The notes under the pieces: generated by a model
Databases searched by the model: none
The model's input: the letters and a program-made list of their open reading frames with translations, nothing else
Told to the model about the DNA's origin: nothing
Shown: positions 3,009 through 31,336 of the stretch, piece after piece
How the letters are laid out: each line of letters begins with the position of its first letter
Position numbering within the stretch: position 1 is the first letter of the stretch
Assembly: GCA_965602655.1 (NCBI GenBank)
Contig: CBFCZE010000001.1
Coordinates: forward strand, 1 to 60,126
Origin: an uncultured bacterium
GTDB lineage: Bacteria; Zixibacteria; MSB-5A5; GN15; PGXB01
Direction: 5' to 3'
DNA: 60,126 nucleotides
Translations under genes and position numbers: made by a program

Positions 3009-3337
3009 TGTCGGCTCCCTGTAAATTTAGCACCAAAATTTGTTAACCACCAAATTGAATACCATTACGACAAATTTGGATCTATCAGAAATAATTTATA
3101 ATTCAATAAAGTTATAAATTATTATAATCCAACGAATTTATATTCACTTTACCATCTATAGCAAGAACTTTTTAAAAAAATATTTTATAATGTTTTGAAA
3201 TAATCCCCAAAATTTTTTTTATTAAAAGTCTTTCAAAGGAATTTTATGTTTTCTATTTTTCAAAAACTATTTGTTGCTCTTGGAGAAAAATTTTGCTATT
3301 TATTAAAGTTACAGTTTATTAAAAGACGAAGGTGTTT

Positions 3338-4498: not shown

Positions 4499-4520
4499 AT
4501 ATTTATTGCTTTTTATTAAT

Positions 4521-8270: not shown

Positions 8271-8292
8271 AATCATATGCTTTTATAGGTAT

Positions 8293-9540
8293 ATGAAATG
8301 TGCAATGACAAAAATCATATATCAATTAATTTTAATTTTCCTTCCCGCTCTGATAATATTTTATGGGGCGGGGTCATGTAAAAATATGGAAGCAAAGGAT
8401 AGCAAAATGGCTTTCGAAACTAAGGATGTAGCCTACCCGGTCAGGTTTGCCAATTTCCAGAGAAATTCTAATGTCCCGGTTATGATGAAATCCAGGTGGA
8501 ATCCGGTATGGTTTAAAAAATATTCGGATATCAATATTGATTATTCATTTATACCCTATAATGTATTGGTTAGGGATAACCTTGTAGGTGTCCGCTATGA
8601 CGCAGAGATGCTATTATTTAACTCACAGGGTAATATGGTGTATCAAATGCCATTGAGTGCTTCGGGTAGTGTTGTTCTGGGTAAGACCGCTATGGCGTAT
8701 CTTGTTATGACTCATCAGATTAACTATCGAGATTATGAATTTAACCTGATTGAAAATATTGGTACACTCCCGGAATTGAATGAATGGTCATATGAATTAC
8801 TTATGTGCCCTACATTTGAAGATATTCTGGCAGTAGTTCAATTTACCGGAGGTCCTCAATATGAACCAAGGAAATATTATATTTATAAGCTTCTTCCGAA
8901 TAAAAGAGATGTTGACTGGTTCCACGAATTTGACGGTGTTGCGAATCATGCTCTTCTGACAAATGATGAAAATAACATCATTCTGGTAAATCGAAATAAT
9001 GTCAGCATTTTTAATACCGATTCGGGAGAGAATACTGGATCATTTAAAATTAATTTTGATGACACGATTGAGCCTGATGTACCATCGATTGCCTCGTTGG
9101 ATAAAAATGACAATCTTGTAATCCTTGCGGACAGAATAGTTGATGAAAAGACCGATAAATATCTGGCGGTTTATTCTCCTGACGGCAAGGAACTCTGGTC
9201 GTTCAAATTAAATGAACCCAATCTCAATCAACCGCCTGCGTGCGATAACGACGGCCGAATATTTATTATTGATGGATTACAACTTCATTGTTTAAAAGAT
9301 GGTGAAATTGATTGGACGGCGATTCTTAAACCGGCTGAAAGAAATTGGATCACTATCACTTCTGACAATCATGCCGTAGTTATAAATGGAAGCCTGCTGG
9401 CTCTGTTTGCGCCAAATGGTGAAAAACTGTTTGAACGGCTTATAACTAAGACCGATGATCAGTTTTATGCCCCGCCGGCACTTGATAAAGATGGACATAT
9501 ATTTGTGGCTGGCCAGAAGGCGTTGTACTGTTTTGAATAA
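8293..9540 (+). CDS. lipoprotein with PQQ-like/beta-propeller repeats (candidate immunity or periplasmic accessory protein)
   Basis: Lipobox-like IIFYGAGSC near the N-terminus. Repeated 'DG..W.f' blades at the C-terminus (SPDGKELWSFKL, DNDGRIFIIDGLQLHCL, DGEIDWTAIL, APNGEKLFERL, DKDGHIFVAGQKALYCF). Confidence 0.6.
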   Translation: MKCAMTKIIYQLILIFLPALIIFYGAGSCKNMEAKDSKMAFETKDVAYPVRFANFQRNSNVPVMMKSRWNPVWFKKYSDINIDYSFIPYNVLVRDNLVGVRYDAEMLLFNSQGNMVYQMPLSASGSVVLGKTAMAYLVMTHQINYRDYEFNLIENIGTLPELNEWSYELLMCPTFEDILAVVQFTGGPQYEPRKYYIYKLLPNKRDVDWFHEFDGVANHALLTNDENNIILVNRNNVSIFNTDSGENTGSFKINFDDTIEPDVPSIASLDKNDNLVILADRIVDEKTDKYLAVYSPDGKELWSFKLNEPNLNQPPACDNDGRIFIIDGLQLHCLKDGEIDWTAILKPAERNWITITSDNHAVVINGSLLALFAPNGEKLFERLITKTDDQFYAPPALDKDGHIFVAGQKALYCFE

Positions 9541-9588
9541 TTTTGAACAAAATAGGTTTACAAATAATAAAAAATAGATGGTTTTAAA

Positions 9589-10032
9589 ATGAGCAAAAAT
9601 AATCCGTTTAAATTTGATCTTCCAAAAGGCTGGATGGATCAAACCGTATACGTTTTTCAGGGTCCGAAAGAGGCCGATTTGGATCACAGTATTATGCTGA
9701 CCCTTGATAGAAAATTGCGGCACGATGAAATTTCCAATTTTGCTGCTGAAAGAACCTCGCCGATTATTGAAACGATGGATGGTATCGATGTGCTAAAGGA
9801 TGAAGAAATTACGCTACCAAACGGTAATCCGGCCTGGGAATTTGTCTACAAATGGGTTCCCGCCGATGATATGATATTTTTCCAGAAATACGTCTTTGTC
9901 TATAAGGATAAAATAGGTTTTACCTTTTCGGGAAAATTTACCAAACAGACGATTAAAACTGTCGGCGCCCAGATGAAACAAATAATTGAAACTCTTCTGC
10001 CGGGAACGTATGAGCCTTTGGATGAAGATTGA
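9589..10032 (+). CDS. DUF1795 (DcrB/Eag-like) effector-associated chaperone candidate
   Basis: 147 aa. The opening NPFKFDLPKGWMDQTVYVFQGP matches my recollection of the DUF1795 'F.LP.GW.D.T...F' start. Size is typical for the family. Its TGA stop overlaps the ATG of the next gene (TGATG). Confidence 0.55.
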   Translation: MSKNNPFKFDLPKGWMDQTVYVFQGPKEADLDHSIMLTLDRKLRHDEISNFAAERTSPIIETMDGIDVLKDEEITLPNGNPAWEFVYKWVPADDMIFFQKYVFVYKDKIGFTFSGKFTKQTIKTVGAQMKQIIETLLPGTYEPLDED

Positions 10033-11255
10033 TGTCTGATTTGAAATTCACAAAAGCGACCGATGAGGAGCATGAGATTAAACTCGATTCCCATCTTATC
10101 AGCGCCTCCTGGGTTTCCGGGATGGCCTTTGTCGGTTTAAAGCCCAAATTTGAGGTGCGCACTGTTTTTGTCGGCAATGGTTCCAAAATAAAAGTAAAGG
10201 GCAAAACCGAAAAGGGTAAAAAACTCGGTAAAGTTAAGGGTAAAATGCAAGCTAATGTTTTTACCGGCGAGTTTGAGATTCCTGATAAAATAGAGTTGGA
10301 TGATCAGATATATTTTGAAGTCGACCTTTCCGCCAACGGTCTCAGCGGCGAATCGGCCAAAATTCCGGTATACCCGCAACCCAAACTAAAAAGTATCAAA
10401 TGGAGCGCCGATGAGGCCCGGCGTGGTGATGTCTTAACCATGTCGGCCGAGCTGGAAGATGTAAAAGACGGCGTTGAAACTAAACTGATAATATATGAGT
10501 TTGACAACGATGGCGCCCACGATAAAATCTCTGAATTGCCGGCAACCGTCAAGGAGAGTAAAATTGAAGAGATGTGGGAGTATGAATATCACGAGGATAC
10601 CGATGAACTCCCCACCAGCGAGGAGGTCGAAAAATACGGTGGATCATATAATCCGCCTGAATATTTTTTCACTATCAAAGTCGGTGAATTTGAACTGGGA
10701 AAAGAAAATCAGGATTCGGGGATTTTGAATTTTAAAGACTGGTTTGAATATAAGCTTGAAGATGAAAATGGTACTTCGATAGCCGATGAAAAGTACAAAG
10801 CGATATTGCCCGATGGTCAGGAAAAAGAAGGTAAAACCGATTCTGACGGATTAATAATTATTAAAGAAGTCCCTCCCGGTAAAGTTAAAATTGAATTTCC
10901 TTCGGATGAAGACGAAGATGAAGAAGAAGAAAAAGAGGAGGAAGAAAAGGATGCTGAGGAACAGAAAATTCCGGAGGGCCAGGCGGATCAGACTCAAACG
11001 CAGTCAGGTGAAGATGTAGATTCAGTGGAAGAAGAAGATAGTGACGAAGATCAGGAAGAAAATAAGGAAGATGATGACGATGAAGAATTGAATCAGGCAA
11101 GAGAAGAAACAGGGACCGGTTCATCAACGCAGTCGGGCAGAAGTGGTGGGGCGACCCAGACAGGTGAATCGGGCGGTTCGACTCAATCAGATGATACATC
11201 CAGCTCAACACAACAGGATGATTCCTCGCAAACATCAACGCAATCAGGAGCTTAA
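10032..11255 (+). CDS. hypothetical protein: beta-rich N-terminal domains shared with the PAAR protein extension + long acidic / Ser-Thr-Gln-rich tail
   Basis: ATG 10032 is coupled to the upstream stop. Segment ~10392-10600 (SIKWSADEARRGDVL...IEEMWEYEYHED) resembles PAAR-protein segment ~3991-4194 (KAEWSTNSAHVGDKV...IEYEWELEVDD). Motif YKAILPDGQEKEGKTDSDGLIIIKEVPPGKVKIEFP at 10794-10901. Low-complexity tail ~10905-11252. Confidence 0.6.
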   Translation: MSDLKFTKATDEEHEIKLDSHLISASWVSGMAFVGLKPKFEVRTVFVGNGSKIKVKGKTEKGKKLGKVKGKMQANVFTGEFEIPDKIELDDQIYFEVDLSANGLSGESAKIPVYPQPKLKSIKWSADEARRGDVLTMSAELEDVKDGVETKLIIYEFDNDGAHDKISELPATVKESKIEEMWEYEYHEDTDELPTSEEVEKYGGSYNPPEYFFTIKVGEFELGKENQDSGILNFKDWFEYKLEDENGTSIADEKYKAILPDGQEKEGKTDSDGLIIIKEVPPGKVKIEFPSDEDEDEEEEKEEEEKDAEEQKIPEGQADQTQTQSGEDVDSVEEEDSDEDQEENKEDDDDEELNQAREETGTGSSTQSGRSGGATQTGESGGSTQSDDTSSSTQQDDSSQTSTQSGA

Positions 11256-11323
11256 GTTAGAATATTTTTATATGATTGTTCTTTTCCATATTTGAAGGGG
11301 CAATAGCCGAATTTGAGGTTATT

Positions 11324-13966
11324 ATGGCAGGCGATTCGGGCGTTGGTACAGGTAAACGCCATACAAGAAAAAGAAAATGCAGACTTCATGAAAATTGTTA
11401 TATCTATGAAGCTTTAAAACTGCATGACTCCTATATTGAGGCTCTAAAAAGTCTGGATTCTTTGCAGAAAAGTTATGCTGTTGGATTAAATGCATCCAGA
11501 TTTACACGCGATATTTGCAGGAACCTGGCCGATCATGAAGGCAAGGTGAAATCTAAATTAACCGAGTTTGGCGGTCCCGGTACCAAAGGTTCAATAAAAA
11601 TTTCATTGAAGGATAGAAGGGGGCGGCCGGTTGGCGGTGAAAAGTATGATCTCTATATTCCGGGAGAAAAAAAGCGATCCGGTAGCCTTGGCGGAGACGG
11701 CACTAAGGTTGAAAAGAATATCAACACCGGACCATGCTTTGTAAATTTTCCCAATCGGGGTGAAGATACATGGGAATATTTGCTGGCGCCAAAAAGATAT
11801 AAGGTCAAGGAAGAATATTGGGCTAATATCAAAGGGGGCGTCGCCGGTATTAAAAAAGGTAAAGAAGCAGTTACGGCGACCTCTTATGAAACCACGCATT
11901 TAAAAAAATATATCGAATATCGAGAAAATAAAATTGTTGCCGTTGAAAGCGATGCAGAAAAAGCGGCCGAAAAGCTTATTAAGCTTATTAAAAGCCCAAA
12001 GGTTCAAAAACATATCAAGAAGCAACATGGCAATCGTCTTTTGCCGGATTCTTTGATAAAAGAATTTTATGGTGTCGATCCAAATAGTTCAGACAAGAAA
12101 TATCGTGAGAGCGACCATTACCTGGCAATCTTAACCGAAGATCTGAATAAAACCCGAGCCGGCTTGAAATTTCTCGATACCCTATTCGATGAAAATAAAT
12201 TATCCAAGCAATATGCTTTTAAGGATTTATGGGGATTTATCGGGAAAACAAAAACGGCATCGGAAGCCTCAGGTAAGTTTCTTTTTAATGTTATGCCAGC
12301 CCTGTCCCTTAAGATAAATCAGGTAGTAGATTGGGATCAGATTGATTCAATTACCGATATTACAAATAAGAATGCTACTATAAAACCATACTTTCAAACA
12401 CTGGAAAAATATCTCGGCAAAAATAAGTTCTCCAAATGGCTGGGTGCCCGGGTTGATGATCTGGCCAAAAGAAATAGGACTGCGGTAAAGGCAGCTCGAA
12501 ATAGAAAAACGTTTGATCGTTTAATTAAAATCTGGTCTGATCCGAACAATTCAAGGTATGATGCCGTTTATGCGGCAACGGCGAAAAAACATGATGCCGA
12601 GAAGGCCCTCGACGGTGTCTGGTTTGGTATGGCTCTCGATACCGTTGCGGTTGTTCTATCTACTTATGACATATTCAAAACAGTTCAGAAGGCTCCTCTT
12701 AAAGATAAGATAGGATTGGTCGGTGATATATTAGGGGCTATCAAAACCGTGGCCGAAGCGGTTGAAAGTACACAAAATCTAAGGGTGGCTGTTGCCGCTG
12801 AAACCGGGGCCAGCGGTGAAACCATAAAAACATTAACCACTCGGGCGAATGCGGCCAAAATTTGTGTTCGTGTTCTAACTGTTCTTGGGGTTGTTGTCTC
12901 GGCGGTGGTGATGGTTTGCGAAATTTATGATGCCTGGCGTAAACGGAACTGGCGTGTGGTTGCCCTTAGTATTGCATCGTTTGGAGCCATGCTTGTCGGT
13001 CTAGCCTATACCGGTATTGGTGCCGTCATATCAATCATTATTGCAATTATTGCTTATCTTGTTTATGAACCGCCGGTAGTAGACTTTATTCAATTGTCTT
13101 ACTGGGGTGAAGATTATATCGAGGCTCAGGATAAAATTGCTATCAAAGACACCATACTTAAATACTTTGAAGTAATATATACATTAAAGATTAGATTTAT
13201 TCACAAATGGGGTGGTGATGCAAATAAATCATTTATGTATATACAATGCGGGATGCTTTCTGAGAAAGCCCCTATCTATGTACAGGTATTTGAATATAAA
13301 AATAAAAAATTCTATCCTTTATCAAAGCAATGGAAAAAGGTTTATCCCGGATTGGAAAATGTTGACGGTAAAGGACGCGTTTTTAAAGAGATCACAACCT
13401 GGTCAAAATGCCCGAATCGACCCCGGACAATTCAAATACATAAGTATTGGGAAATATGGCCGAATATAAAGCGTGACAGTGATACCAAATACTGGGTGGC
13501 TGCGGCTCTGGATCCCAGTCGCGATTCACGATATGCCTTAAAAGACCAAACATGGGTCACGTTTCCATCTCCGGAGAAACCAAAACTCAAAATCAATAAT
13601 CCATTCAGTACGTCGGCGTATATTGATCGCAATATCTATATAACATACTATAAGGGCAAAATTTCAATGATTTTCCGGACCAATTACGCTAAGGGTTGTT
13701 ATATGAAGTTATGGCTTACCCGAGAAGGCAGTGGTTTATTTAATTGGGATAAAGAAATACATGAGGGGCTTAAAATTCCGGTAACCGCCGACACAACTAA
13801 GAAAAGGGTCAGAGTCCCGGATCCCAAAAATGGCACATATGAGGTAACAGCAAAAGTAGTGTTATATAACGCAAAAGATGAAGAAGTTGATACTGAAACC
13901 TTTTCTGGCGTTCTAAGCACGTATATTGTAGCGTCCCAGAAATATATTGATAAGCTTAAAGGCTAA
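11324..13966 (+). CDS. 880-aa putative membrane-targeting T6SS cargo with central cluster of TM helices
   Basis: ATG 11324 with GAGG 7 nt upstream (the ORF track starts at TTG 11276). Hydrophobic helices VWFGMALDTVAVVLSTYDIF, ICVRVLTVLGVVVSAVVMVCEIY and WRVVALSIASFGAMLVGLAYTGIGAVISIIIAIIAYLVY lie at ~12615-13068. No signal peptide. An N-terminal copy of the small beta-sandwich motif sits at 11645-11752. Confidence 0.6.
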   Translation: MAGDSGVGTGKRHTRKRKCRLHENCYIYEALKLHDSYIEALKSLDSLQKSYAVGLNASRFTRDICRNLADHEGKVKSKLTEFGGPGTKGSIKISLKDRRGRPVGGEKYDLYIPGEKKRSGSLGGDGTKVEKNINTGPCFVNFPNRGEDTWEYLLAPKRYKVKEEYWANIKGGVAGIKKGKEAVTATSYETTHLKKYIEYRENKIVAVESDAEKAAEKLIKLIKSPKVQKHIKKQHGNRLLPDSLIKEFYGVDPNSSDKKYRESDHYLAILTEDLNKTRAGLKFLDTLFDENKLSKQYAFKDLWGFIGKTKTASEASGKFLFNVMPALSLKINQVVDWDQIDSITDITNKNATIKPYFQTLEKYLGKNKFSKWLGARVDDLAKRNRTAVKAARNRKTFDRLIKIWSDPNNSRYDAVYAATAKKHDAEKALDGVWFGMALDTVAVVLSTYDIFKTVQKAPLKDKIGLVGDILGAIKTVAEAVESTQNLRVAVAAETGASGETIKTLTTRANAAKICVRVLTVLGVVVSAVVMVCEIYDAWRKRNWRVVALSIASFGAMLVGLAYTGIGAVISIIIAIIAYLVYEPPVVDFIQLSYWGEDYIEAQDKIAIKDTILKYFEVIYTLKIRFIHKWGGDANKSFMYIQCGMLSEKAPIYVQVFEYKNKKFYPLSKQWKKVYPGLENVDGKGRVFKEITTWSKCPNRPRTIQIHKYWEIWPNIKRDSDTKYWVAAALDPSRDSRYALKDQTWVTFPSPEKPKLKINNPFSTSAYIDRNIYITYYKGKISMIFRTNYAKGCYMKLWLTREGSGLFNWDKEIHEGLKIPVTADTTKKRVRVPDPKNGTYEVTAKVVLYNAKDEEVDTETFSGVLSTYIVASQKYIDKLKG

Positions 13967-14264: not shown

Positions 14265-15716
14265 ATGGACATAGCCAATTATTCATCAGATTCTCGGGCC
14301 GTTATTAAGAACGCCAAGGAAGTTGCCGCTCAATTGAGGCATATCGAAATTGAAGTTGAGCATCTTCTGATCGCAACCATCAGGCACGAGGGTTCCGAAG
14401 TTGAGTCAATCTTAAATCAGCTCGGAAAAAGCGTCGGCTTTATCGAATCGGCCGCCGACGAGTATCTTAAGGATCAAACCAAAAAATCAACTGTCACCAA
14501 CCCGACCATTTCACCCGGAGTTCAGGAAGCTCTGATGCAGGCGGTTGATGAAAAAAGCAAGCTTATGGATGCTCTGGTGGAACCGGAGCATATTTTTATT
14601 GCTATTTTTGATCCCAAATCAAAGCTGTCGGGGTTTGTCCGCGAAAAAACCGAGCTGACCAAGGAAGATCTTTATCGTGCTCTGGCCGACAGTAAATCGG
14701 TCGCCGAAATTACCACCGGTGTGACACCGGCCGACGGAAAACCGGCCGAAGAGGGTGAAAAGAAAGTTTCCGGAACACTTCGCTACTGCGTTGATCTGAC
14801 CAATCAGGCCGCGGCCGGTGAGTTTGATCCCGTTATAGGACGAAGCAAGGAAGTTCAGCAGGCAATACAAATATTGCTTCGCCGACGTAAAAACAGCCCG
14901 GTTCTGGTCGGCGGTGCCGGAGTGGGCAAAACCGCCATTGTTGAAGGTTTCTGTCAGGCTATCATTGACGGTGCCGTTCCTAAAGCGCTCGAAAATGTAA
15001 AAGTGATGGAAGTAGATATGGGGGCACTTGTTGCCGGGGCCAAATATAAGGGGGAATTTGAGGAACGATTTAAAGCACTGATTGGCGATGTGGTTAAATC
15101 GGGCGGCAAGATTGTTCTTTTTATCGATGAAATTCATAACATTACAACCTCTGGTGGGGGCGGCGGGACCGATGCAGCCAATTTGATAAAACCGGCTCTC
15201 GCTCGTGGTCAAATTCGGCTTATTGGTGCCACAACCGAGGAAGAATATATTAAACATCTTGAAAAAGATAAGGCACTCGATCGACGATTTGAAAAGATTA
15301 AGATCGAGCAGCCGGACTATGACGATTCCGTCCGGATTCTGGAAGGGGTCGCCGGCAAATATGAAGAACATCATAAGATAGTTTATGACCATGAGGCCCT
15401 TTCAAGTTCGGTAAAATTCGCCCAGCGTTATCTCAGCGAACGAAATCTTCCCGATATAGCGCTTGATATTATTGATGAAGCCGCCTCTGAATTTGATGTC
15501 AAAAAAGAAATGGCGGGCCAGAAAATCCCGGTCATGGGCGAGCAGATTACAGAAATTACCGAACTTCTTAAAAAATGTGAAGGTAAAACACCTGAAAAGT
15601 GCGGCGAAGATTATGACAAACTGACCAAAGTCTATGATAAATTCTCGCGAAGTCTCGAAACGCTCCAAGATCACTGGGGTTATCGTCTGGAAGTCAAAGC
15701 GGAGGGGACCAAATAA
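14265..15716 (+). CDS. clpV: ClpV/TssH AAA+ ATPase, N-terminal half (N-domain + D1 ring + coiled-coil stub)
   Basis: Clp N-domain-like start. D1 Walker [17 protein letters not shown], Walker [34 protein letters not shown]. It ends within the region where ClpB/ClpV carry the middle domain. Confidence 0.85.
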
Positions 15717-16819
15717 TGCCGGATAAACCAAGAAAAATCAGCGAGATAAAAGAAGAATTCGACGTTAAAGTTGATCAACTGAAATCTTTACAGGGGGTTG
15801 TTGAATCTCTTGAGAATAAAATCGACGATGCCGATATCGCCACCGTTGTGGCTCGTCGAACCGGCATACCGGTAACCAAAATGATGACAGCCGAAAAAGA
15901 CAAGCTGGTCAATATGGAGGCTTTTCTTTCGAAAAAAATTATTGGTCAGAAGGATGCCATTAAAGTCATCGCAAATGCCATTAGAAAATCACGAGCCGGG
16001 TTGAAGATGAAAAATCGCCCGGTCGGCTCATTTCTCTTTCTGGGTCCGACCGGAACCGGTAAGACATATCTGCCAAAACTGTTGGCCGAATTCCTTTTCG
16101 ATGACAAGAATGCTATGGTGCGTCTTGATATGTCGGAATTTATGGAATCGCATTCAGTGGCCAAAATGATTGGCGCCCCTCCCGGATATGTCGGATATGA
16201 GGCGGGTGGTTTGTTGACCGAAGCGGTTCGCCGCAAACCATTTTCTATTGTCCTGCTGGATGAAGTGGAAAAGGCACATCCCGATGTGTTTAACGTTTTG
16301 CTTCAATTACTTGATGACGGTCGTTTGACCGACGGGCAGGGACGAACAGTCGATTTTTCGAATACGCTGGTTGTCCTGACAAGCAACTATGCCGCCGAAA
16401 AGATTCTTGAGGCCGATCGTGAGGGTCGGGAAGTTGATATGGAAGAAGTTCGTGGTTTTCTGTTCAGCAAATTCCGTCCTGAGTTTTTGAATCGTCTCAA
16501 TGATATTATTATTTATCACACCTTTACTCAGGAGCAGGTGGAAAAAATAACGGCACTGGAATTTAATGCATTGTGTGATCTTCTTAAAGACCAGAATATC
16601 ACCGCCAATCTCAGCGATGGGGCGTGCAAAAAACTTGCCGCGGACGGTTATACAATCGAGCTTGGAGCTCGTCCGATTCAAAGGACAATAGAGAAAGAGA
16701 TTATTAATAAATTATCGGTTGATATTATAACCGGCAATATTTCTCCCGGCGACAATATCTCGGTTGATATCAAAGACGATAAATATATTTTTAATGTGAT
16801 TAAAGAAGAGAATTCATAA
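15716..16819 (+). CDS. clpV: ClpV/TssH AAA+ ATPase, C-terminal half (D2 ring + C-terminal domain)
   Basis: RRTGIPV, Walker A FLFLGPTGTGKTYLPKLLAEFLF, Walker B IVLLDEVEKAHPDVFNVLLQLLDDGRLTD, VVLTSN, RPEFLNRLNDIIIYHTF. ATG 15716 shares its A with the TAA stop of the upstream half (TAATG). Confidence 0.85.
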   Translation: MPDKPRKISEIKEEFDVKVDQLKSLQGVVESLENKIDDADIATVVARRTGIPVTKMMTAEKDKLVNMEAFLSKKIIGQKDAIKVIANAIRKSRAGLKMKNRPVGSFLFLGPTGTGKTYLPKLLAEFLFDDKNAMVRLDMSEFMESHSVAKMIGAPPGYVGYEAGGLLTEAVRRKPFSIVLLDEVEKAHPDVFNVLLQLLDDGRLTDGQGRTVDFSNTLVVLTSNYAAEKILEADREGREVDMEEVRGFLFSKFRPEFLNRLNDIIIYHTFTQEQVEKITALEFNALCDLLKDQNITANLSDGACKKLAADGYTIELGARPIQRTIEKEIINKLSVDIITGNISPGDNISVDIKDDKYIFNVIKEENS

Positions 16820-17296: not shown

Positions 17297-18724
17297 ATGG
17301 GTGAAGAAGAAAAACAAGAAGCACAGGCACAGGAAGCAAAGGCCAAGGAGGCTGCTCCCGTAGCAGCCGGTGAGGCAATATCAGATGAAGAGTTTTCATC
17401 GATGTTAGGCGAATCTTTTGGAAGTTTTAAAAACCTGGCGGCCTTGATGCCGTCGTTTAAAACGCCTGATGGTGACCTCGTTCGCGGCGTCGAATGGCTC
17501 GATCCGAAAAAGGATTTCCAGCGCAAAGAGTTTTTGACAAAAAAGAATTTTGAAGGACAGCGCAAACTGTTGGCCCTGAGATTGAAAAAGTGGATGGAGT
17601 ATCTGGCCGGCGATGAAACCCCGGATGCCACACGCAAAAAGCTGAGTGAAGATTCGGCCAAGCTGGAAGCCAACCTGCGCAAAAACATGACCAAGGTTCA
17701 TAATAAATCACGTGAGCTTGAAACAACTTATCGTGCCATCGATAAGTTTTTTGCCAATGCGCAACAGGAACCGGATGAGAAGGTCAACGCTTACTTTGCC
17801 AATGCCGGCATTGAAGAGTTAACCGACCCGGACGACAAGGAAAAATTCGAGCAATTAACCACAGCTATTGCCGATCTTTACCGCGAGTGGAGCATCAAAG
17901 AATGTTTTTCGATGGCGTGTGTCCCCGGTTATATGGGCAGTGTTGAGAATATTGACACCTTTGCGCGACAGTTGGGCTTCCCGAATAAACTGCATATCAT
18001 GACCGATCTGCCGAATTTTGAATCGGTTGACGAAGTTATGGAGATGCTCGACGATCCCAACTATGCCAATTTGATCGGCGTCGATAATTTCAAGCAGTAT
18101 GTTTCAGTTTTCGCCAACTATCTGTTGGCGCGCAATGCCAACGAGTATGAAGATGATGATATGTGGATACCACCTTCTGCTTCTGTCGCCGGAATGATGT
18201 ACAAGAGTGACACAACGGTTGGTATGCAGCAGCCGTCGGCCGGCTTTAAGTATGGAAAGATTGCCGATGCCAAGTATATCCGCTTCCGGGCCAATCAGCC
18301 AGATGCCAGTAAGATAAATGAAAAAGGTGTTAATCCTCTGGTTAACTTTGAAGGATCGGCGGTAGCGATGGGTTCATCGACACTAAGCGTTAAAGAAACA
18401 TTTAATGTTTATTCCATTCGTCGCACGTATGATTATGTTTATAAAACGCTTCGCAATTATCTTAATAAACAAACCTTTACCGTTATTGATCAGAAGATGA
18501 TTGATGCCCTCCGGTCCGATATCGATAAATTCATGCGGGCCATCTCCGGCGGCGATAATATCCTGCAGGATTATAAGGTAGAGATTTTTGCCGATGAGCA
18601 GATGCGTAAAAACCAGGAAGTTGACATTAAGGTTGCTTTGAATCCTAAGTATCCGGCCAGAACATTTAATATTGAATTCGCGGCATGGGATGCGGACAAT
18701 CAAACCAATGTGAAAGATAAGTAA
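17297..18724 (+). CDS. tssC: T6SS large sheath subunit TssC/VipB-like
   Basis: 475 aa (typical TssC size), with acidic N-terminus. Position is tssB-tssC-hcp. The call is mainly by size and synteny. Confidence 0.7.
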   Translation: MGEEEKQEAQAQEAKAKEAAPVAAGEAISDEEFSSMLGESFGSFKNLAALMPSFKTPDGDLVRGVEWLDPKKDFQRKEFLTKKNFEGQRKLLALRLKKWMEYLAGDETPDATRKKLSEDSAKLEANLRKNMTKVHNKSRELETTYRAIDKFFANAQQEPDEKVNAYFANAGIEELTDPDDKEKFEQLTTAIADLYREWSIKECFSMACVPGYMGSVENIDTFARQLGFPNKLHIMTDLPNFESVDEVMEMLDDPNYANLIGVDNFKQYVSVFANYLLARNANEYEDDDMWIPPSASVAGMMYKSDTTVGMQQPSAGFKYGKIADAKYIRFRANQPDASKINEKGVNPLVNFEGSAVAMGSSTLSVKETFNVYSIRRTYDYVYKTLRNYLNKQTFTVIDQKMIDALRSDIDKFMRAISGGDNILQDYKVEIFADEQMRKNQEVDIKVALNPKYPARTFNIEFAAWDADNQTNVKDK

Positions 18725-24082: not shown

Positions 24083-25531
24083 ATGAGTGACTTAAACTTA
24101 TATTCGGTTAACTGGCAGGACGGCATGCTGATAACGCAGCGTCATTTAATGGATCAGGAAAAATACTTTGAAACGTTGACCAGATGGCAGGCTCTCAACA
24201 CAGGTTTTGGTTATGGTCTCGTATCCAAATCGACTGCCGGAAAATCAACGCTTAATCTTAATTTAACCGTTAATGGTGATCAACTGCGAGTTGAGGTTAG
24301 CCGCTGCCAGGCTCTGACGCCGGGCGGGCATTATATTGAGATTAACGATACTTTAAATAATCCCCTCAAAGCGGAATGCCAGGTGGGTGATTCTCCCATG
24401 ATTGTATATATCGGTATCGATCCGAAAAACAAAAATGCTGTCGGCGATGCCGAACCCGAGGAGGAGTTGCCTCGCCTGCCGTATCGTGTTAACCAGTACT
24501 TGCTTTCTCTTGGGGAACCGCCTAATCTTCCGGAGGAAAATTATATTCCCGCGGCCGAGTTAAATGTTTCAGGCGGCGAGGTTAGCCTGTCGAATGATTA
24601 TTATCCGCCGTGTGTGACCGTTTCGGCCGGTGAACATCTAATGCAGAAAGCCGGCGATTTTAAAAATCGACTGGAGAATCTGTTATCCTTGGCCTCTCGC
24701 GCTTTTATGGCGATGGCATCCGATACATCATTGTCAGGTGAAAAAACAAATTTGCAGACTGCTTATCGTGATATGATGTCCCTCTTCGTTTATAATCTGG
24801 CTTCGATGCTGGATGATTTTGCGGTCGGGCGCCGGATGATGCATCCATTAAAACTGATTATCAACATAAAGAAACTTTTCCGGGTATTATCATCGCTTTT
24901 AAATATGCAGCCCGGTTTGAAGGACTATCTCAATGAGCGGTACTTCAGTAAAGAGCGAAAATCCGAGATTGGCCGGTTTCTGGCCCTGATTGACGGATTT
25001 CTTTTGAGTGAGTATAATCATCTTGATATTAGATCTCAGGTAAAAGTAATTGATGAAATATTTGAAGAGCTACGCGGTTTGATGGGCTTTTTAGCGCAGA
25101 CCAAACGGGAGCAGCTCGGCGATCAGGCGGTGGCGACCGACACGCTAACATACCGAAGCCGAACCTACCGGTTAGCCGAGTATGGTTCAAACAAAGTTGA
25201 GAATATCGGCGGACTTAATTATTTGATGATTGAAATTTCCAAGCCGCTGCCGATATCTGATACTGTGATTCTGATGTCAAAAGATTTATTTGGCGATGCC
25301 GGATGGGCCAGTATGCAGGTACGGTTGGGTCTTAATGACGCCCGCGGATTGGGCGAAACCGACCCGGTCGATATCGATGGGACTACTTTTGGAAACAAAG
25401 TGACTCTGCATCCGCAGGATATGCTCCAATCACAAGCGGTGAAGCAGATAACATTAATTTTCCGTGGAGCTGGAGATACAGATAAATTTTCCGGTTTAGG
25501 TAAAACTGACCTTATAATATATACTTTGTAA
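24083..25531 (+). CDS. tssK: TssK baseplate protein
   Basis: 482 aa. The N-terminus SVNWQDGMLITQRHLMDQEKYFE matches the canonical TssK opening 'V.W.EGM.L.PQHFQQ.D.Y'. Confidence 0.75.
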   Translation: MSDLNLYSVNWQDGMLITQRHLMDQEKYFETLTRWQALNTGFGYGLVSKSTAGKSTLNLNLTVNGDQLRVEVSRCQALTPGGHYIEINDTLNNPLKAECQVGDSPMIVYIGIDPKNKNAVGDAEPEEELPRLPYRVNQYLLSLGEPPNLPEENYIPAAELNVSGGEVSLSNDYYPPCVTVSAGEHLMQKAGDFKNRLENLLSLASRAFMAMASDTSLSGEKTNLQTAYRDMMSLFVYNLASMLDDFAVGRRMMHPLKLIINIKKLFRVLSSLLNMQPGLKDYLNERYFSKERKSEIGRFLALIDGFLLSEYNHLDIRSQVKVIDEIFEELRGLMGFLAQTKREQLGDQAVATDTLTYRSRTYRLAEYGSNKVENIGGLNYLMIEISKPLPISDTVILMSKDLFGDAGWASMQVRLGLNDARGLGETDPVDIDGTTFGNKVTLHPQDMLQSQAVKQITLIFRGAGDTDKFSGLGKTDLIIYTL

Positions 25532-25547: not shown

Positions 25548-26477
25548 ATGGCGGCTGAGATTGAATCATATATAGACGACCTTTTTAATTATCTTGATAT
25601 CTATAAGAACCGGCAGTCGGAATTCAAGACCGAGGCTTTTTTGCAGACCTACAACGGTGTTTCGGCGGTCTTTAATACGTTGCGTCAACAAAGAGATGAG
25701 GCGGTCCATGTTGACCTGTATTTCCTCAATAAAATAAAGGCGACTCCATTGGCCGATTCCGATCTGCGCGAATTAACCATTCAGATTCTGATTACCTATT
25801 TTGAATCTGAGGCTGACACCGACGGCCAGTCCAACAAAGCCTTTTCGTATTGCCGCGGGCTTCGTACTGTCAAGCAGGATGTCCCGTATTTTGAAAACTA
25901 TCTGATGCCTCTCTTACTTAAAGAGAGAAGCCTTAAGGATAATTTCAAACTCAATACATTTTTCCTTAATGAAATTGCACGGTACATTAATAAGTTTGGA
26001 CGACCGCTCAATCCTAATATGACCCCGGAAAAATTTGCCTCGAAAAACAACCCGCTTAAATTGTTGGAGCTGACCAGACGTCGCCAGCAGTTAGGTAAGG
26101 ATTTAGTTTCGGATCGAAATTCACTTGAATTTGACCTGAAACGTCTTGGCGTTTTTGATAAGGTTTCTGAGAAGAATAAACTGATTGCTCAATATTTTGA
26201 CGAATGGAAATATTGTGAAAAGGGTGATTTTCTCTCAAAAGTCAAAGGCTGGTTATCTGAATTTGGCGGAAAATTCGGTGGCGCCTTTTCCAGTTTCCGG
26301 TATTTCCGGTTGGTCATTACTCAGCGTAAGGCGGCCTATTTGTTTTACAGCTTAATTATTATTCTGTTTTTATTATTGGCCGTTTATGTTCCGTCCAAAT
26401 GGAGAGAGAATTCACAGACTAAATTTGAACAGTTGCAAAAAAGAGCCTCCGAGGTCCCGAGTGGATCCGGTCGCTAA
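25548..26477 (+). CDS. tail-anchored inner-membrane protein (TssL/DotU-like topology, no recognisable sequence similarity)
   Basis: 309 aa: ~260 aa soluble and helical, a single TM AAYLFYSLIIILFLLLAVYV (~26330-26392), and a short C-terminal tail. It begins 16 nt after tssK. Confidence 0.6.
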   Translation: MAAEIESYIDDLFNYLDIYKNRQSEFKTEAFLQTYNGVSAVFNTLRQQRDEAVHVDLYFLNKIKATPLADSDLRELTIQILITYFESEADTDGQSNKAFSYCRGLRTVKQDVPYFENYLMPLLLKERSLKDNFKLNTFFLNEIARYINKFGRPLNPNMTPEKFASKNNPLKLLELTRRRQQLGKDLVSDRNSLEFDLKRLGVFDKVSEKNKLIAQYFDEWKYCEKGDFLSKVKGWLSEFGGKFGGAFSSFRYFRLVITQRKAAYLFYSLIIILFLLLAVYVPSKWRENSQTKFEQLQKRASEVPSGSGR

Positions 26478-26513
26478 TATAAATTGAATATATTTTGAGG
26501 TTAAAATAAAATT

Positions 26514-28718
26514 GTGAAACCGGGAAAAATTTTAAAGAAGCTGGTAAAAGTTTTTAAAAGCAGCTCCGGGGACGGTAAAAAAGGCGGCTCGGCTTTTGAC
26601 TGGCCATCGGGAACCAAAATAGCCATTTACGGTCATGCCAATGCCGGTAAGACGGTCTATTTTACCGTTCTCAACGAAGAGTGCAAAATCGGCAAGGATT
26701 TACAGCTATCGATTACCGATACGGCCACCGCCAGCGATATTTTATCAAATTATCGTGCTATCTGGGGTGTCGGTAGCGAGACCGGTTCCGGGACAGTCGT
26801 CGATTTGCGCGGTGAAAAAAAGTTCCCCGATTCCACCCCCGACGGAAAACTTTTTCTGTTTAATGCCATTGTTGATCGGAGCAGTAAATATTCGGTTTGT
26901 ACTTATGATTATGGCGGCAAAGCAATCTCTCTCAACAGCAGCGGCGAGCTAGCCGAAAAGGTAGCTGATTTTACCCTTGGAAGTGACGGTGTCCTGTTTT
27001 TCTTTGATCCCAAGGTGCTGGGGGCGGAAATGCAAACCCACGCCCATGTCGCTTCGTTTGTAAGCCTTTTGGAAAAACTGGCGCCGTTGGATAAGAAACT
27101 TCCGATACCGGTCGCACTGGTAATTACCAAAGCTGATATTTTACCCGGCTTTTCCGGCGAGGATAAATCGGTTTTGGTCAGCCCGGAGGATGAAAATATC
27201 CTGTCCGAAGATTTTGACTTTTTCCTTGAAAAAATACTCAACTCAAATAAAATTGCCTCTAATTCTGCCTGGTCTGGATCGGTCAGGAATGTACTTGTCA
27301 AGTTGCGCGAATTTTTGAAAGTCATTGTCGGTCGGACCTTGAATTTCCAGATATTTTTCGTTTCATCGACCGGACAGCAGCCGGAAAAAATCGGCACCGA
27401 TGTTGGACGTTCATTATACGCTCCACCCACAAAAATTAAACCGATCGGTGTTAAAGAACCGTTTTACTGGCTTCTAAATTCAATCGTTCAAAATAAACGT
27501 ATCGCCGGTTTTAAAAAACTGGCCAGATTTGTAGCTTATGTAAGTCTTTTATGGGTAGTTCTCTTTTCCGTACCTTATCTTTATCATGATAAATTCCTTC
27601 TGGAGCGTGCCATAAAAGCGGAAATGGATGTTCTTAAGGCATATTCGGGTAATATTTATAACACATCATTGAAGGAACGGAACAATGTTATAAATGCGTA
27701 CCGTAAGTACGACAACACCTGGATTACGCGCAATCTTTTTCCCCGATTTAGAAATCCGATTGCACGTATCAGGAGCCGTTATGAGAATTTCAATCTGGGC
27801 GAAGCCTTGGAGCGGTTGGATGAAACATTCCTGACTTTCAACGTTATCGTCAAGGACAAAAAACTCTGGCCGAAATTGAATCCCAGCGATACAACTCTTA
27901 TCGAGACAGAAAATCACAAAAAGCTGGTGGAAAATCTGGACAATTTCCATCAGGGTGATGAATCGACATCGCTGTACAAACGCAGCGGTCGGGCACTGAC
28001 ATATTGGAATCTTTTTACCCAGGCGATTCTGGCGCCAACCGATACGACTATCTGGGAGACAATCCGCCAACAGGTGGAGCAGGATAATAATCTTTACGCC
28101 TCCGATATGAGCAAAGCCGAAAAAGACCTGGGTTCATCATTAACTGCTCAGAGGGCAGAAAAAATTAAAACAGTGGTCGCCAAAGAAGTTGCCCAGAAAG
28201 CTGGTGTTGAATTTGACGATGTCATTGACAATGTTAACAATAACATGGATCCCGATTATCGATTTGGAAAAGCAATCCGGGATCTTCGCAAAGTTCGCGG
28301 CAAACTTGACCCGGCAAACACAAAAGCGATATCCTCAATTGATAAATATATCAGCGAAGTCAAAAAATGGGAAAAACGGCAAAGCTTTACCTGTAAAATA
28401 GGCGCGATTCCCGATCAGGGACATCTGCACATAGAAGTAACCGGCAAAGGACAGGACCCGTCGTGGTCGGAATTCTCTCAAATATTCGAAGGTGACGAAT
28501 TCAGCTTCAAGTGGAAACTTGGCGATGAGATACATATTGCTTATGATACTCCAGATATTGCCGAAACCTGGGGCAAGGATGCCAGCGACAAGAAAACCTT
28601 GCGAGGTAATGTGGCGGTTTTTGAAATGGATGGAGAAATAAATTTCAGTAATGTCGGTAAGACGGTTAGTATCAGCTTTACACCGGGCCTGATTGATCGT
28701 ATGCCGACTTTGGAGTAA
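26514..28718 (+). CDS. membrane-anchored GTPase-like P-loop protein with ~370-aa extracytoplasmic C-terminal domain
   Basis: GTG start. G1 GHANAGKT (26631-26654), G3 DYGG (26907-26918), G4 TKAD (27126-27137). One TM FVAYVSLLWVVLFSVPYLY (~27523-27585). The rest is mixed helical/beta. Confidence 0.7.
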   Translation: MKPGKILKKLVKVFKSSSGDGKKGGSAFDWPSGTKIAIYGHANAGKTVYFTVLNEECKIGKDLQLSITDTATASDILSNYRAIWGVGSETGSGTVVDLRGEKKFPDSTPDGKLFLFNAIVDRSSKYSVCTYDYGGKAISLNSSGELAEKVADFTLGSDGVLFFFDPKVLGAEMQTHAHVASFVSLLEKLAPLDKKLPIPVALVITKADILPGFSGEDKSVLVSPEDENILSEDFDFFLEKILNSNKIASNSAWSGSVRNVLVKLREFLKVIVGRTLNFQIFFVSSTGQQPEKIGTDVGRSLYAPPTKIKPIGVKEPFYWLLNSIVQNKRIAGFKKLARFVAYVSLLWVVLFSVPYLYHDKFLLERAIKAEMDVLKAYSGNIYNTSLKERNNVINAYRKYDNTWITRNLFPRFRNPIARIRSRYENFNLGEALERLDETFLTFNVIVKDKKLWPKLNPSDTTLIETENHKKLVENLDNFHQGDESTSLYKRSGRALTYWNLFTQAILAPTDTTIWETIRQQVEQDNNLYASDMSKAEKDLGSSLTAQRAEKIKTVVAKEVAQKAGVEFDDVIDNVNNNMDPDYRFGKAIRDLRKVRGKLDPANTKAISSIDKYISEVKKWEKRQSFTCKIGAIPDQGHLHIEVTGKGQDPSWSEFSQIFEGDEFSFKWKLGDEIHIAYDTPDIAETWGKDASDKKTLRGNVAVFEMDGEINFSNVGKTVSISFTPGLIDRMPTLE

Positions 28719-28748
28719 CTAAAAGATACTTAAAAAAGGAGTTGGGGG

Positions 28749-29276
28749 ATGAATAAAAGGATTTCAAAAGTTTCGATTGTTTTAATTCTTGTCGTTTTTA
28801 TAGTATCTGTTTTTTCGGTCAATTTTGCTCTGGCCGGGAAAATTATGATTCCCAAAGATACCGAAGTCAAAATCAGATTCGACCCCAATATGGTGATTAA
28901 CTCCAGGACCACATCGGAGGGAATCCCGCTTTTGATAAATCTGGCCGAATCGATTGAAATCGGCGGTGTGACTATTGTCGAAAAGGGTGCCGCCGGAACC
29001 GCCACTGTCGTAACAGCCGAAAAAGCCAAAAAAGCCGGCAAACCGGGGCTTATCAAAATTGAGTTTATCGATCTGGAAACTAAAGGCGATTTCAGCCTGG
29101 CCGAAGGCGAGAAAATTAAATTGACCGGAAGCGCCGAAGGAAAAGGTAAGGGTAAAAAACTCTTATCATTAATACTTGGTTTTGGACTCTTTATCAAGGG
29201 CGGTGAGGGTACAATCCCGACCGACCAGTTTTACACCGCCACCGTCGCCGAGAACATCATCCTCGAGAGCGAATAG
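28749..29276 (+). CDS. small secreted hypothetical protein, last gene of the T6SS-linked string
   Basis: 175 aa. Signal peptide VSIVLILVVFIVSVFSVNFALAGK (no lipobox Cys). RBS AAGGAG. Beta-rich, with Lys/Gly-rich patches. Confidence 0.6.
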   Translation: MNKRISKVSIVLILVVFIVSVFSVNFALAGKIMIPKDTEVKIRFDPNMVINSRTTSEGIPLLINLAESIEIGGVTIVEKGAAGTATVVTAEKAKKAGKPGLIKIEFIDLETKGDFSLAEGEKIKLTGSAEGKGKGKKLLSLILGFGLFIKGGEGTIPTDQFYTATVAENIILESE

Positions 29277-30178: not shown

Positions 30179-31336
30179 ATGATACGTTTTATTATGTATC
30201 AGACGAAAACCAAACGTTTTTCATCGGTAATACTTTTGCTGTCCGTAACATTTCTTGCTTTACCGTTTATTATTGGCGGAAATGCTTACGCCCAGAATGT
30301 TACCTCAACAACGGTAACATTAAACTGGACGGCGCCGGGTGATAACGACAACAGCGGAACCGCCACCGAATATGATATTCGTTATTCGCTGTTTCTTATT
30401 ACCGAAAGTAACTGGACCTCGGCGACACAGGCAACCGGTGAACCGACTCCACAGTCGGCTGGATCATCCGAAACCTTCACCGTCGAAAATCTTGAACCGA
30501 ATACCACCTATTATTTTGCCGTCAAATCGGCCGATGAGGTTCCCAACTGGTCGGATATTTCAAATGTTATCTCACGGGCAACACTTGAGGAAACCACGCC
30601 GCCGTCAGCCATTGCCAATCTGACCCTGAATAACGCCACCTTGAGCAGTATCACTTTGCACTGGACGGCGCCCGGTGATGATGGTACATCAGGGAAGGCA
30701 TCGGAATATGATATAAGATATTCAACGTCGCCAATAGATGCCGGCAACTGGGATGGAGCAACTCAGGTGGCCGATGAGACCGCTCCGAAACAGGCCGGAT
30801 TTGCCGAATCGTTTATCGTTGACGGTTTATCATCCGGGACAACCTATTACTTTGCCATTAAAACCGCCGATGATGTTCCCAACTGGTCGGATATTTCAAA
30901 TGTTCCCAGCCTGGCCACCGAGACCGAGCAAACCCCGCCATCAGCAATTGCCGGCCTGACAGTTGATAATATCACCGGTAATAGTGTCAGGCTTAACTGG
31001 GTCGCTCCCGGTGACGACGGCAACAGCGGTACCGCGGCGCAGTACGATATCCGCTACTCGACCTCACCAATAAGCAACGAAACCGATTGGAGCAACGCCA
31101 CTCAGGTATCCGATGAACCGGTTCCGCTTGTGGCCGGTACGCCTCAGAATTTTACGGTTACAGGTCTTGATGTAGAAACAACTTACTACTTCGCCATTAA
31201 GACCGCCGATGATATCCCCAACTGGTCGGGCATCTCCAATGTGGTCAATACGGCCACTATTGATGATGTTCCGCCGGCGGCCGTAAATGATCTGGCGGCA
31301 GTGATTGAATTACTCTTTATGAGCGATCTGGTCTAA
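30179..31336 (+). CDS. secreted protein with three FN3-like 'W(T/V)APGDDG..G.A..YDIRYS' domains, ending at the start of a fourth
   Basis: Signal peptide (...GGNAYAQN). Three ~102-112-aa units, each with L.WTAPGD.., YDIRYS, TYYFA(I/V)K(T/S)AD(D/E)(V/I)PNWS. RBS AAGGGAG. Confidence 0.8.
   Translation: MIRFIMYQTKTKRFSSVILLLSVTFLALPFIIGGNAYAQNVTSTTVTLNWTAPGDNDNSGTATEYDIRYSLFLITESNWTSATQATGEPTPQSAGSSETFTVENLEPNTTYYFAVKSADEVPNWSDISNVISRATLEETTPPSAIANLTLNNATLSSITLHWTAPGDDGTSGKASEYDIRYSTSPIDAGNWDGATQVADETAPKQAGFAESFIVDGLSSGTTYYFAIKTADDVPNWSDISNVPSLATETEQTPPSAIAGLTVDNITGNSVRLNWVAPGDDGNSGTAAQYDIRYSTSPISNETDWSNATQVSDEPVPLVAGTPQNFTVTGLDVETTYYFAIKTADDIPNWSGISNVVNTATIDDVPPAAVNDLAAVIELLFMSDLV
30293..31270 (+). 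repeat. three tandem in-frame coding repeats (units 30293-30598, 30599-30934, 30935-31270) plus a 22-codon stub of a fourth
   Basis: Unit boundaries were read from the protein (PPSAIANLTL.. / PPSAIAGLTV.. / PPAAVNDLAAV..). Nucleotide similarity is visible between units, e.g. gatgttcccaactggtcggatatttcaaatgtt in units 1 and 2. Confidence 0.7.

Follow-up and report, generated by a model that had tools for sequence, protein, structure and literature searches.

Two solutions to the membrane complex of type VI secretion systems (T6SSs) have been characterized: TssJLM in Pseudomonadota and TssNQOPR in Bacteroidota (PMC10781749; PMC13584744). A 2026 review recognizes four T6SS classes and two membrane-complex types, with T6SSiii confined to Bacteroidota (PMC13584744), and Bongiovanni et al. 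left it as an open question whether the two membrane complexes are independent in origin or whether one replaced the other (PMC10781749). The connection to the membrane complex is made by TssK. In both known types, genes for the complex are clustered with tssK, and the one for the baseplate-contacting component lies beside it (PMC10781749). Here, we describe three open reading frames (ORFs A, B, and C; positions 25548–29276, + strand) that directly follow tssK in a 60,126-nucleotide stretch of contig CBFCZE010000001.1 from an uncultured Zixibacteria bacterium; the whole of this stretch was analyzed and is referred to below as the window. The best-supported reading of our results is that the T6SS encoded here has a third type of membrane-associated module, which is partly related to TssM via its nucleoside triphosphatase (NTPase) domain. 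At roughly 55%, we put slightly better than even odds on ORFs A, B, and C being a lineage-specific envelope module of a Zixibacteria-type T6SS without TssJLM or TssNQOPR, a module that probably replaces both known kinds of T6SS membrane complex.

Conservation of three genes beside tssK

Using Pfam and NCBIfam models, we identified a T6SS cluster on the + strand of the window with genes for PAAR, ClpV, TssB, TssC, Hcp (TssD), VgrG, TssE, TssF (weak matches only), TssG, and TssK; sheath, tube, spike, baseplate, and ClpV genes all lie in this one cluster, which is the basis for calling it a T6SS. The tssK gene (24083–25531, +; TIGR03353, E = 8.7e-17; PF05936, E = 3e-6) lies directly 5′ of ORF A. 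TssC (17297–18724, +) matched PF17541 (E = 4e-67), and the product of the Hcp/TssD gene (+) matched PF17642. We used TBLASTN to align the window TssC against 72,556 plasmids; the only matches were ten Bacteroidota T6SSiii sheath genes (26–31% identity), and the hundreds of proteobacterial T6SSi loci in the same plasmid set gave no match, which places the apparatus nearer to T6SSiii, though far from it. As judged from protein sequence, the window T6SS is related to Bacteroidota T6SSiii by its sheath and tube. Pfam, NCBIfam, and direct comparison identified no homologues of TssJ, TssL, or TssM, or of TssN, TssO, TssP, TssQ, or TssR, within the 60-kb window; no other candidate membrane-complex gene or alternative inner-membrane anchor was recognized in the cluster, and PADLOC found nothing.

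ORF A (25548–26477, +) encodes a protein of 309 amino acids (aa) with a cytoplasmic domain of ~260 aa, one C-terminal transmembrane (TM) helix, and a short periplasmic tail; hydropathy analysis identified a single hydrophobic segment at aa 263–281. AlphaFold2, based on 35 homologues, predicted an all-alpha protein with 16 helices, including a long terminal TM helix (confidence score pLDDT 81.7). We identified 277 homologues, and the named ones are almost all from Zixibacteria/GN15. A preliminary description of this DNA, made without database searches, had likened the topology of ORF A to that of TssL/DotU while noting no sequence resemblance, and both parts of that observation hold up. The protein has no match to any Pfam or NCBIfam family at E ≤ 10, DotU included, and a hidden Markov model (HMM) of its family identified neither TssL nor any other significant match among all PDB sequences. 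Against seven TssL sequences, hhalign gave P = 0.47, or P = 0.077 with a broader alignment of ORF A. When the predicted structure was aligned to the PDB with Foldseek, the best match (E = 0.22) was TPR/helical-repeat noise, and there was no TssL/DotU among the 50 matches listed. By sequence and by predicted fold, ORF A is not detectably TssL/DotU.

ORF B (26514–28718, +) is predicted to encode a single-pass inner-membrane GTPase of 734 aa; its GTG start is backed by an N terminus that is conserved in 33 homologues. AlphaFold2 (pLDDT 80.7) predicted a cytoplasmic G domain (~aa 30–310), a periplasmic helical domain (~aa 360–620), and a periplasmic C-terminal domain that is beta-rich in its predicted secondary structure (aa 623–722; 28380–28679, +). 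The only hydrophobic segment is the predicted TM helix (aa 336–357; 27519–27584, +; Kyte-Doolittle 1.87), which falls inside a long helix of the model (aa 314–376) and is followed by ~375 residues.

ORF C (28749–29276, +) encodes a predicted secreted protein of 175 aa with a signal peptide (aa 1–29) that ends in NFALA, before GK. The protein contains no Cys and is therefore not a lipoprotein; likewise, no lipobox Cys is conserved after the signal peptide anywhere in the family alignment. ORF C has no Pfam match, its family HMM has no match among all PDB sequences, and hhalign comparisons with TssJ (P = 0.46), TssM, and TssL were all negative. The most conserved element of the protein, GKGKKLLS(Y)L(F)IFGLFIKGG (~aa 131–152; 29139–29204, +), is located near the C terminus. 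Lys residues flank this hydrophobic stretch, which is shorter than a TM helix would require and may be a membrane-dipping or partner-binding motif.

To represent the Bacteroidota complex, TssN, TssO, TssP, TssR, and a putative TssQ were taken from a Tenacibaculum T6SSiii locus; against these proteins, ORFs A, B, and C scored no higher than 3.3 bits with HMMs and 2% with hhalign. Pfam and NCBIfam also gave no match of the three proteins to T6SSiii membrane-complex families, the presence of TssN, TssO, and TssR models in NCBIfam being taken from annotations.

The gaps between tssK and ORF A, ORFs A and B, and ORFs B and C are 16, 36, and 30 nucleotides, respectively, and each contains a purine-rich stretch resembling a ribosome-binding site; from this spacing, we infer that the four genes are co-transcribed. 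Our check of the ORFs and of their hydropathy agreed with the preliminary description on coordinates, topology, gaps, and the G1, G3, and G4 motifs of ORF B.

We scanned one genome per GTDB species and found 109 genomes with a relative of ORF B, from which 80 loci were kept; only loci with enough flanking sequence enter the synteny counts. A homologue of ORF A lies directly upstream of ORF B in 71/72 of these loci, a homologue of ORF C lies directly downstream in 72/72, and TssK is encoded directly upstream of ORF A in 65/66; the single exception locus has a run of N upstream. Metagenomes contributed another 61 main-family loci, and wherever a neighbor was testable it was present: ORF A adjoins ORF B in 55/55, ORF C in 48/48, and TssK in 48/48. 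Overall, the three ORFs are kept in fixed order at 40–88% identity across >100 species, and named homologues are almost all from metagenome-assembled genomes of Candidatus Zixibacteria/GN15. Co-occurrence with tssK had been put forward as a check in the preliminary description, which would have taken homologues usually lying far from T6SS genes as counter-evidence; the loci show the former arrangement and not the latter.

The arrangement extends to deep lineages. Four of these (L015, L017, L019, and L020) and contig P0175 have the order TssK-A-B-(GAP1)-C with T6SS genes around it, at 20–30% identity and often with one gene inserted between ORFs B and C; HMM matches ranged from 4e-21 to 6e-36 for ORF A, 1e-13 to 2e-18 for ORF C, and 2e-18 to 7e-50 for TssK. 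Among 19 deep-lineage metagenome loci, ORF A adjoins ORF B in 14 of the 17 that were testable, with L145, L151, and L171 as the three exceptions, and TssK is adjacent in 11 of 13. Distant relatives of ORF B are 617–1053 aa long, and an exhaustive profile search found that they have only the G domain and TM helix in common with ORF B. A relative still further removed, P0200 (E = 6e-13), lies outside a T6SS context, indicating that the T6SS-linked clade has a boundary. Near-perfect synteny with tssK in >70 species and several deep lineages indicates that the trio is a fixed part of the T6SS.

The NCBI titles of many genomes with the locus (L021–L100) read uncultured Ignavibacteriales/Ignavibacteriaceae, Calditrichota, Latescibacterota, Krumholzibacteriia, or Deferrimicrobium, and most others read Zixibacteria. 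These mixed phylum labels have one of two sources: metagenome-assembled genomes were labeled inconsistently, or this T6SS type has spread among phyla of the FCB group.

The GTPase domain of ORF B

The G domain of ORF B has a complete set of GTPase motifs. G1/Walker A is GHANAGKT (aa 40–47; 26631–26654, +), with G40, G45, K46, and T47 invariant; G2 is the invariant T72; and G3/Walker B is DYGG (aa 132–135; 26907–26918, +), followed by K136 where sister lineages have Glu. G4 is TKAD (aa 205–208; 27126–27137, +), which extends to TKADILPGF (aa 205–213; 27126–27152, +), a signature common to TssM (TKADLIAGF), and G5 is FFVSSTG (aa 281–287; 27354–27374, +), which aligns with GVYFTSAT of TssM. The G2 and G5 motifs are additions to those in the preliminary description. 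In 34 family members (48–88% identity), G40, G45, K46, T47, T72, G135, K206, D208, and S284 are invariant, and an alignment of 25 sequences that includes relatives at 16–43% identity retains the G1, G3, G4, and G5 positions (G, GK, G, K-x-D, S) without exception; the motifs are therefore not a chance match. Foldseek aligned the full-length model to atlastin, mitofusin, SR-beta, MglA, and Rab structures in the PDB, all of them TRAFAC GTPases, which confirms the TRAFAC GTPase fold at the level of the predicted structure. By sequence, the ORF B family HMM identified no TssM and no significant match among all PDB sequences, and Pfam and NCBIfam scans of the window protein at E ≤ 10 gave sub-threshold matches only.

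We compared ORF B with TssM using reference sequences that came from annotated T6SSi loci on plasmids: nine of TssM, seven of TssL, and three of TssJ. A diverse 33-sequence alignment of the ORF B G domain aligned to the NTPase domains of the seven TssM sequences with an intact Walker A motif over 142 columns (hhalign 95.6%, E = 1.3e-8); the same profile scored 7% against HRas as a control. An earlier hhalign run, in which a close-family alignment was compared with full-length TssM, recovered only a 20-column G4 motif (18%). The alignment starts past G3, takes in the extended G4 motif (IPVALVITKADILPGF in ORF B vs PVYLLLTKADLIAGF in TssM), and ends at G5; it includes a motif common to both proteins, PxxLxxTKADxxxGF, and, between G4 and G5, a helical insert of ~75–85 residues that is present in ORF B and TssM and absent from Ras. 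Based on these profile comparisons, the G domain of ORF B is specifically homologous to the TssM/IcmF NTPase domain. PF14331 (IcmF-related_N) matched the window protein at E = 0.18 and 16/34 family members (best E = 0.0019), all below the gathering threshold; the profile-profile result is thus one of domain homology, not of IcmF-related_N membership by the Pfam criterion. The preliminary description had treated ORF B as distinct from TssM. This view stands for the single TM helix and the periplasmic half, which match no TssM domain, and has to be given up for the G domain.

DO-GTPase2 (PF19993) is the best Pfam family of ORF B, with all 34 members matching at E ≤ 1 (best E = 1.2e-6); the window protein itself reaches E = 0.01 and 15.9 bits, below the gathering threshold of 27 bits, and distant relatives of ORF B match the DO-GTPase families (PF19993/PF19975) with E values down to 8e-13, scoring above the cut-off. 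GAP1 is the partner protein of DO-GTPases, and these systems have been described as conflict systems, with no T6SS link reported (Kaur, Burroughs, Iyer & Aravind 2020, PMC7159879); the same paper describes as switch components those DO-GTPases that have extracytoplasmic domains and a TM helix at the C terminus. A gene encoding GAP1-N2/GAP1-M lies directly after ORF B in L015 (12504–15443), L017 (7731–8564), and L019 (12404–13198), and GAP1 follows ORF B in 7/13 deep-lineage metagenome loci (L105, L106, L108, L140, L147, L162, and L182). No GAP1 was found in the window or in any of the 40 testable main-family metagenome loci.

The Walker-B Glu (DxxGE), a hallmark of DO-GTPases, is present in all GAP1-bearing lineages examined. 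The window protein has DYGGK, with the Glu replaced by K136; among the 66/80 species proteins in which the motif is readable, this position is K in 41, D in 8, R in 7, and E in 3. Across the metagenome loci, Glu and GAP1 are both present in 5 and both absent in 38, Glu occurs without GAP1 in 3, and GAP1 occurs without Glu in 0; these loci are not phylogenetically independent, and the counts describe a pattern rather than a statistic. The window lineage has lost both GAP1 and the Walker-B Glu, which suggests that its GTPase cycle is changed.

FNIII-repeat proteins are typical partners in GAP1-N2 DO-GTPase systems, and the window encodes a secreted protein with three FN3 repeats (30179–31336, +) 0.9 kb downstream of ORF C. 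We considered this protein as a member of the module and rejected it, as it adjoins in only 4/80 genome loci; its proximity in the window is probably coincidental.

Proposed role, alternatives, and surrounding genes

We best read the trio as a third kind of T6SS envelope/baseplate-docking module with a TssM/DO-type GTPase switch. At its core, ORF B would combine a cytoplasmic GTPase at the N terminus, belonging to the TssM-NTPase/DO-GTPase lineage, with a single TM helix and ~375 aa of periplasmic arm. ORF A, alpha-helical and tail-anchored in the inner membrane, would be an analogue but not a homologue of TssL, and ORF C would be a small periplasmic partner. The cytoplasmic domains of ORFs A and B may form an inner-membrane platform on which TssK docks the baseplate, and the periplasmic arm of ORF B, together with ORF C, may extend in the direction of the cell wall and outer membrane. 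By binding and hydrolyzing GTP, ORF B would then switch the platform between states that permit and states that block docking and firing, a step proposed by analogy with nucleotide binding and hydrolysis by Agrobacterium TssM. Also in Agrobacterium, threonine phosphorylation of TssL and binding of Fha activate type VI secretion (PMC3953482); the window likewise encodes a Ser/Thr kinase (1236–3008, −), which we count in favor of this reading. The protein contacts, structural role, and GTP control in this scheme are all inferred.

More tentatively, the core could be a single-pass GTPase that links DO-GTPase/GAP1 switches with the TssM NTPase domain, within a third T6SS membrane-complex architecture that Zixibacteria share with allied lineages of uncultured bacteria. 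In that case, a GTPase of this kind would have given rise to TssM, and the ancestral way of anchoring a T6SS would have involved an inner-membrane protein with a nucleotide switch, encoded beside tssK; Bacteroidota would have lost the ancestral GTPase, and unrelated proteins would repeatedly have taken on the roles of TssL and TssJ.

Several observations weigh against an envelope module of this kind. None of ORFs A, B, and C encodes an outer-membrane protein, and the proposed complex may therefore not span the whole envelope. The Foldseek matches for full-length ORF B are dominated by the G domain, and the periplasmic half is not resolved in them. In addition, B-like genes in L145, L151, and L171 adjoin PAAR genes rather than tssK. 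These genes form a B-like GTPase lineage of ~655 aa (9896–11953 in L145) beside PAAR and DcrB-like genes that are homologous to window positions 3332–4498 and 9589–10032; no recognizable TssK or ORF A homologue adjoins them, and they are still linked to the T6SS through PAAR genes homologous to that of the window. Finally, the best Pfam family of ORF B has been described in conflict and regulatory systems (PMC7159879), and GAP1 occurs in sister lineages.

A switch or sensor would account for the DO-GTPase match and the GAP1 genes no less well than a structural component. As the main alternative, the module could conceivably be a regulatory trans-envelope sensor/switch rather than a structural anchor, although we regard this as doubtful. 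Under such an arrangement, ORF B would be a DO-GTPase-type signaling protein; its periplasmic domain and ORF C would sense envelope damage or cell contact, and its GTP state, read via ORF A and TssK or via a Ser/Thr kinase pathway, would license firing. The structural channel would come from other proteins, such as those of a CsgG-like/TPR operon beside many of the loci. The DO-GTPase2/1 families as best Pfam match, the GAP1-N2/GAP1-M proteins encoded after ORF B in sister lineages, and the description of TM-bearing DO-GTPases with extracytoplasmic domains as switch components (PMC7159879) all agree with this role, as do the Ser/Thr kinase encoded in the window (1236–3008, −), the FHA, PP2C, and kinase genes that adjoin the module in L020, and the conservation of the kinase-CsgG-TPR/CsgG operon in ~38–46/80 loci. 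However, the known post-translational regulators of T6SSs (TagQRST, PpkA/PppA/Fha, and TagF) are accessory and patchy, whereas the trio is essentially invariant and occupies the tssK-tssL-tssM position; moreover, no alternative inner-membrane anchor is recognizable in the cluster, and the CsgG operon was not found in the 60-kb window.

It is unlikely that the trio is an extremely diverged TssL-TssM-TssJ set, that is, an ordinary orthologous membrane complex. The order of tssK, a tail-anchored protein gene, and an NTPase membrane protein gene does mirror tssK-tssL-tssM, the G domain of ORF B is homologous to the TssM NTPase domain, and the periplasmic part of ORF B resembles that of TssM in its predicted helices and terminal beta domain. 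Yet ORF B has one TM helix rather than three and is ~400–500 aa shorter. None of the 34 ORF B family members matched PF06761, PF21070, or PF06744 (IcmF-related, IcmF_helical, and IcmF_C) at E ≤ 1, whereas six TssM controls matched all three (PF06761, 4e-28 to 1e-85; PF06744, 5e-9 to 5e-27; PF21070, weaker at E = 0.04 to 4e-12), and hhalign of the ORF B periplasmic half against the TssM periplasmic region gave P = 0.08–0.5. Nor do the partners fit: ORF A aligned to TssL with P = 0.08–0.47, with no DotU and nothing significant among the 50 Foldseek matches listed, and ORF C lacks both a lipobox and similarity to TssJ. The preliminary description had held that clear homology of ORF B to TssM and of ORF A to DotU would point to an ordinary membrane complex; what we found is half of this, in the G domain only, with ORFs A and C unlike DotU and TssJ.

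That the trio consists of cargo-related genes (effector, immunity, or adaptor) that happen to follow tssK is very improbable, and on conservation and synteny we reject the effector/immunity reading: T6SS clusters often include genes for effectors and adaptors, and ORF C is small and secreted, but effector and immunity genes vary between close relatives, whereas the trio keeps its order at 40–88% identity in >100 species and persists in lineages at 20–30% identity, and this cluster carries its variable genes upstream, in the PAAR region. The envelope module remains the preferred reading. Its earlier presentation as a novel membrane module stands insofar as the trio is a fixed part of the T6SS and no known complex genes were found in the window, and it is narrowed insofar as ORF B is partly related to TssM.

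The convergent operon mentioned above lies just downstream of the trio in ~38–46/80 genome loci (L021–L100) and also in L001 (12790–20960, −). It encodes, in order, a Ser/Thr kinase, a CsgG-like lipoprotein, a TPR+CsgG protein, and then proteins of 380, 283, and 644 aa; the CsgG-like proteins could provide the system with a component in the outer membrane. No CsgG homologue was found in the 60-kb window, where the kinase alone represents this operon, on the − strand upstream of the PAAR gene.

The cluster begins with this PAAR gene (3332–4498, +; Pfam/NCBIfam scan), which is followed by genes for several large unassigned proteins (4506–13966, +). The L145 PAAR protein matches three window ORFs (3332–4498, 10029–11255, and 11276–13966, all +; E = 1e-75, 1e-22, and 1e-4, respectively), from which there seem to be several paralogous PAAR-related proteins in the cluster; one of these (896 aa) has 3–4 TM segments and a weak match to the BTH_I2691 effector family. 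Directly 3′ of the PAAR gene, positions 4506–8270 (+) encode a 1254-aa protein with a weak OmpA-like peptidoglycan-binding motif at aa 70–120 (PF00691, E = 0.004; TIGR03350 type_VI_ompA, E = 0.085), which could be a cell-wall anchor or an effector.

ClpV/TssH is encoded by two ORFs (14265–15716 and 15716–16819, +) that share one base at their junction (15716). The first contains Clp_N, AAA D1, and the lid, and the second contains AAA_2 D2 and D2-small. A separate D2-only gene of ~365 aa was called in three other Zixibacteria loci (L001–L003), and the split therefore appears to be conserved rather than a frameshift artefact; deeper lineages (L019 and L020) have a full-length ClpV of ~800 aa. 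On the 3′ side of ORF C, a 161-nucleotide gap is followed by unrelated genes, namely those for a DUF4440 lipoprotein, the FN3 protein, a GNAT protein, and a TetR regulator, and hut genes.

Comparison with known systems

Full-text searches of the literature found no paper linking Zixibacteria to a characterized T6SS, none describing a GTPase-based T6SS membrane module, and none linking DO-GTPases to T6SSs. The locus described here is a T6SSiii-like apparatus in another phylum, with a strictly conserved three-gene module that probably stands in for the known membrane complexes.

TssM is the closest counterpart of ORF B within the known T6SSs. Both have a cytoplasmic P-loop NTPase in which the G4 motif is extended (hhhhTKADxxxGF), G5 is similar, and a long helical insert separates the two motifs; both proteins continue from the NTPase into a TM helix and then a large region in the periplasm, and in both cases the gene is located just downstream of tssK and a gene for a tail-anchored protein. 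However, TssM has three TM helices with the NTPase between TM2 and TM3, whereas ORF B has one and no N-terminal hairpin; its G domain starts at ~residue 30, whereas Walker A of the TssM controls is at aa 127–143, behind the expected region of the N-terminal TM hairpin. TssM is also longer (~1130–1310 aa vs 734 aa), ORF B has no TssJ lipoprotein partner, and by Pfam scores its G domain is closer to DO-GTPase2 than to IcmF-related_N. The presence of a TssM-type NTPase domain in the core of the module bears directly on the question raised by Bongiovanni et al., that of independent origin vs replacement. Natural variants for dissecting the TssM NTPase, which is poorly understood, are offered by lineages that have GAP1 together with the Walker-B Glu and by those that lack both.

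ORF A, like TssL/DotU, has a cytoplasmic helical domain and one C-terminal TM helix (tail-anchored) and is encoded between tssK and the gene for an NTPase membrane protein, but it has no detectable DotU-type sequence or fold. The cytoplasmic domain of TssL is usually ~180 aa, whereas that of ORF A is ~260 aa. TssJ/SciN is an outer-membrane lipoprotein, unlike ORF C, which has neither a lipobox nor TssJ similarity.

TssNQOPR (Bongiovanni et al. 2024, PMC10781749) is, like the trio, a non-canonical membrane module in a T6SS with a PF17541/PF17642 sheath and tube, and in each a baseplate-contacting component (a putative one in the trio) is encoded next to tssK. In contrast to the trio, it has five components rather than three, and TssN has five TM helices and no NTPase.

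Outside the T6SS, the closest systems are those of DO-GTPases with GAP1-N2. They are linked to ORF B by PF19993 as its best match, by variants with a TM helix and extracytoplasmic domains, and by the GAP1-N2/GAP1-M genes that follow ORF B in sister lineages. They differ from the window lineage, in which ORF B is embedded in a T6SS operon as a single GTPase, with no GAP1, no conserved FNIII partner, and Lys in place of the Walker-B Glu. Through the module, a secretion machine becomes connected with DO-GTPase/GAP1 systems, which previous descriptions have treated only as conflict systems.

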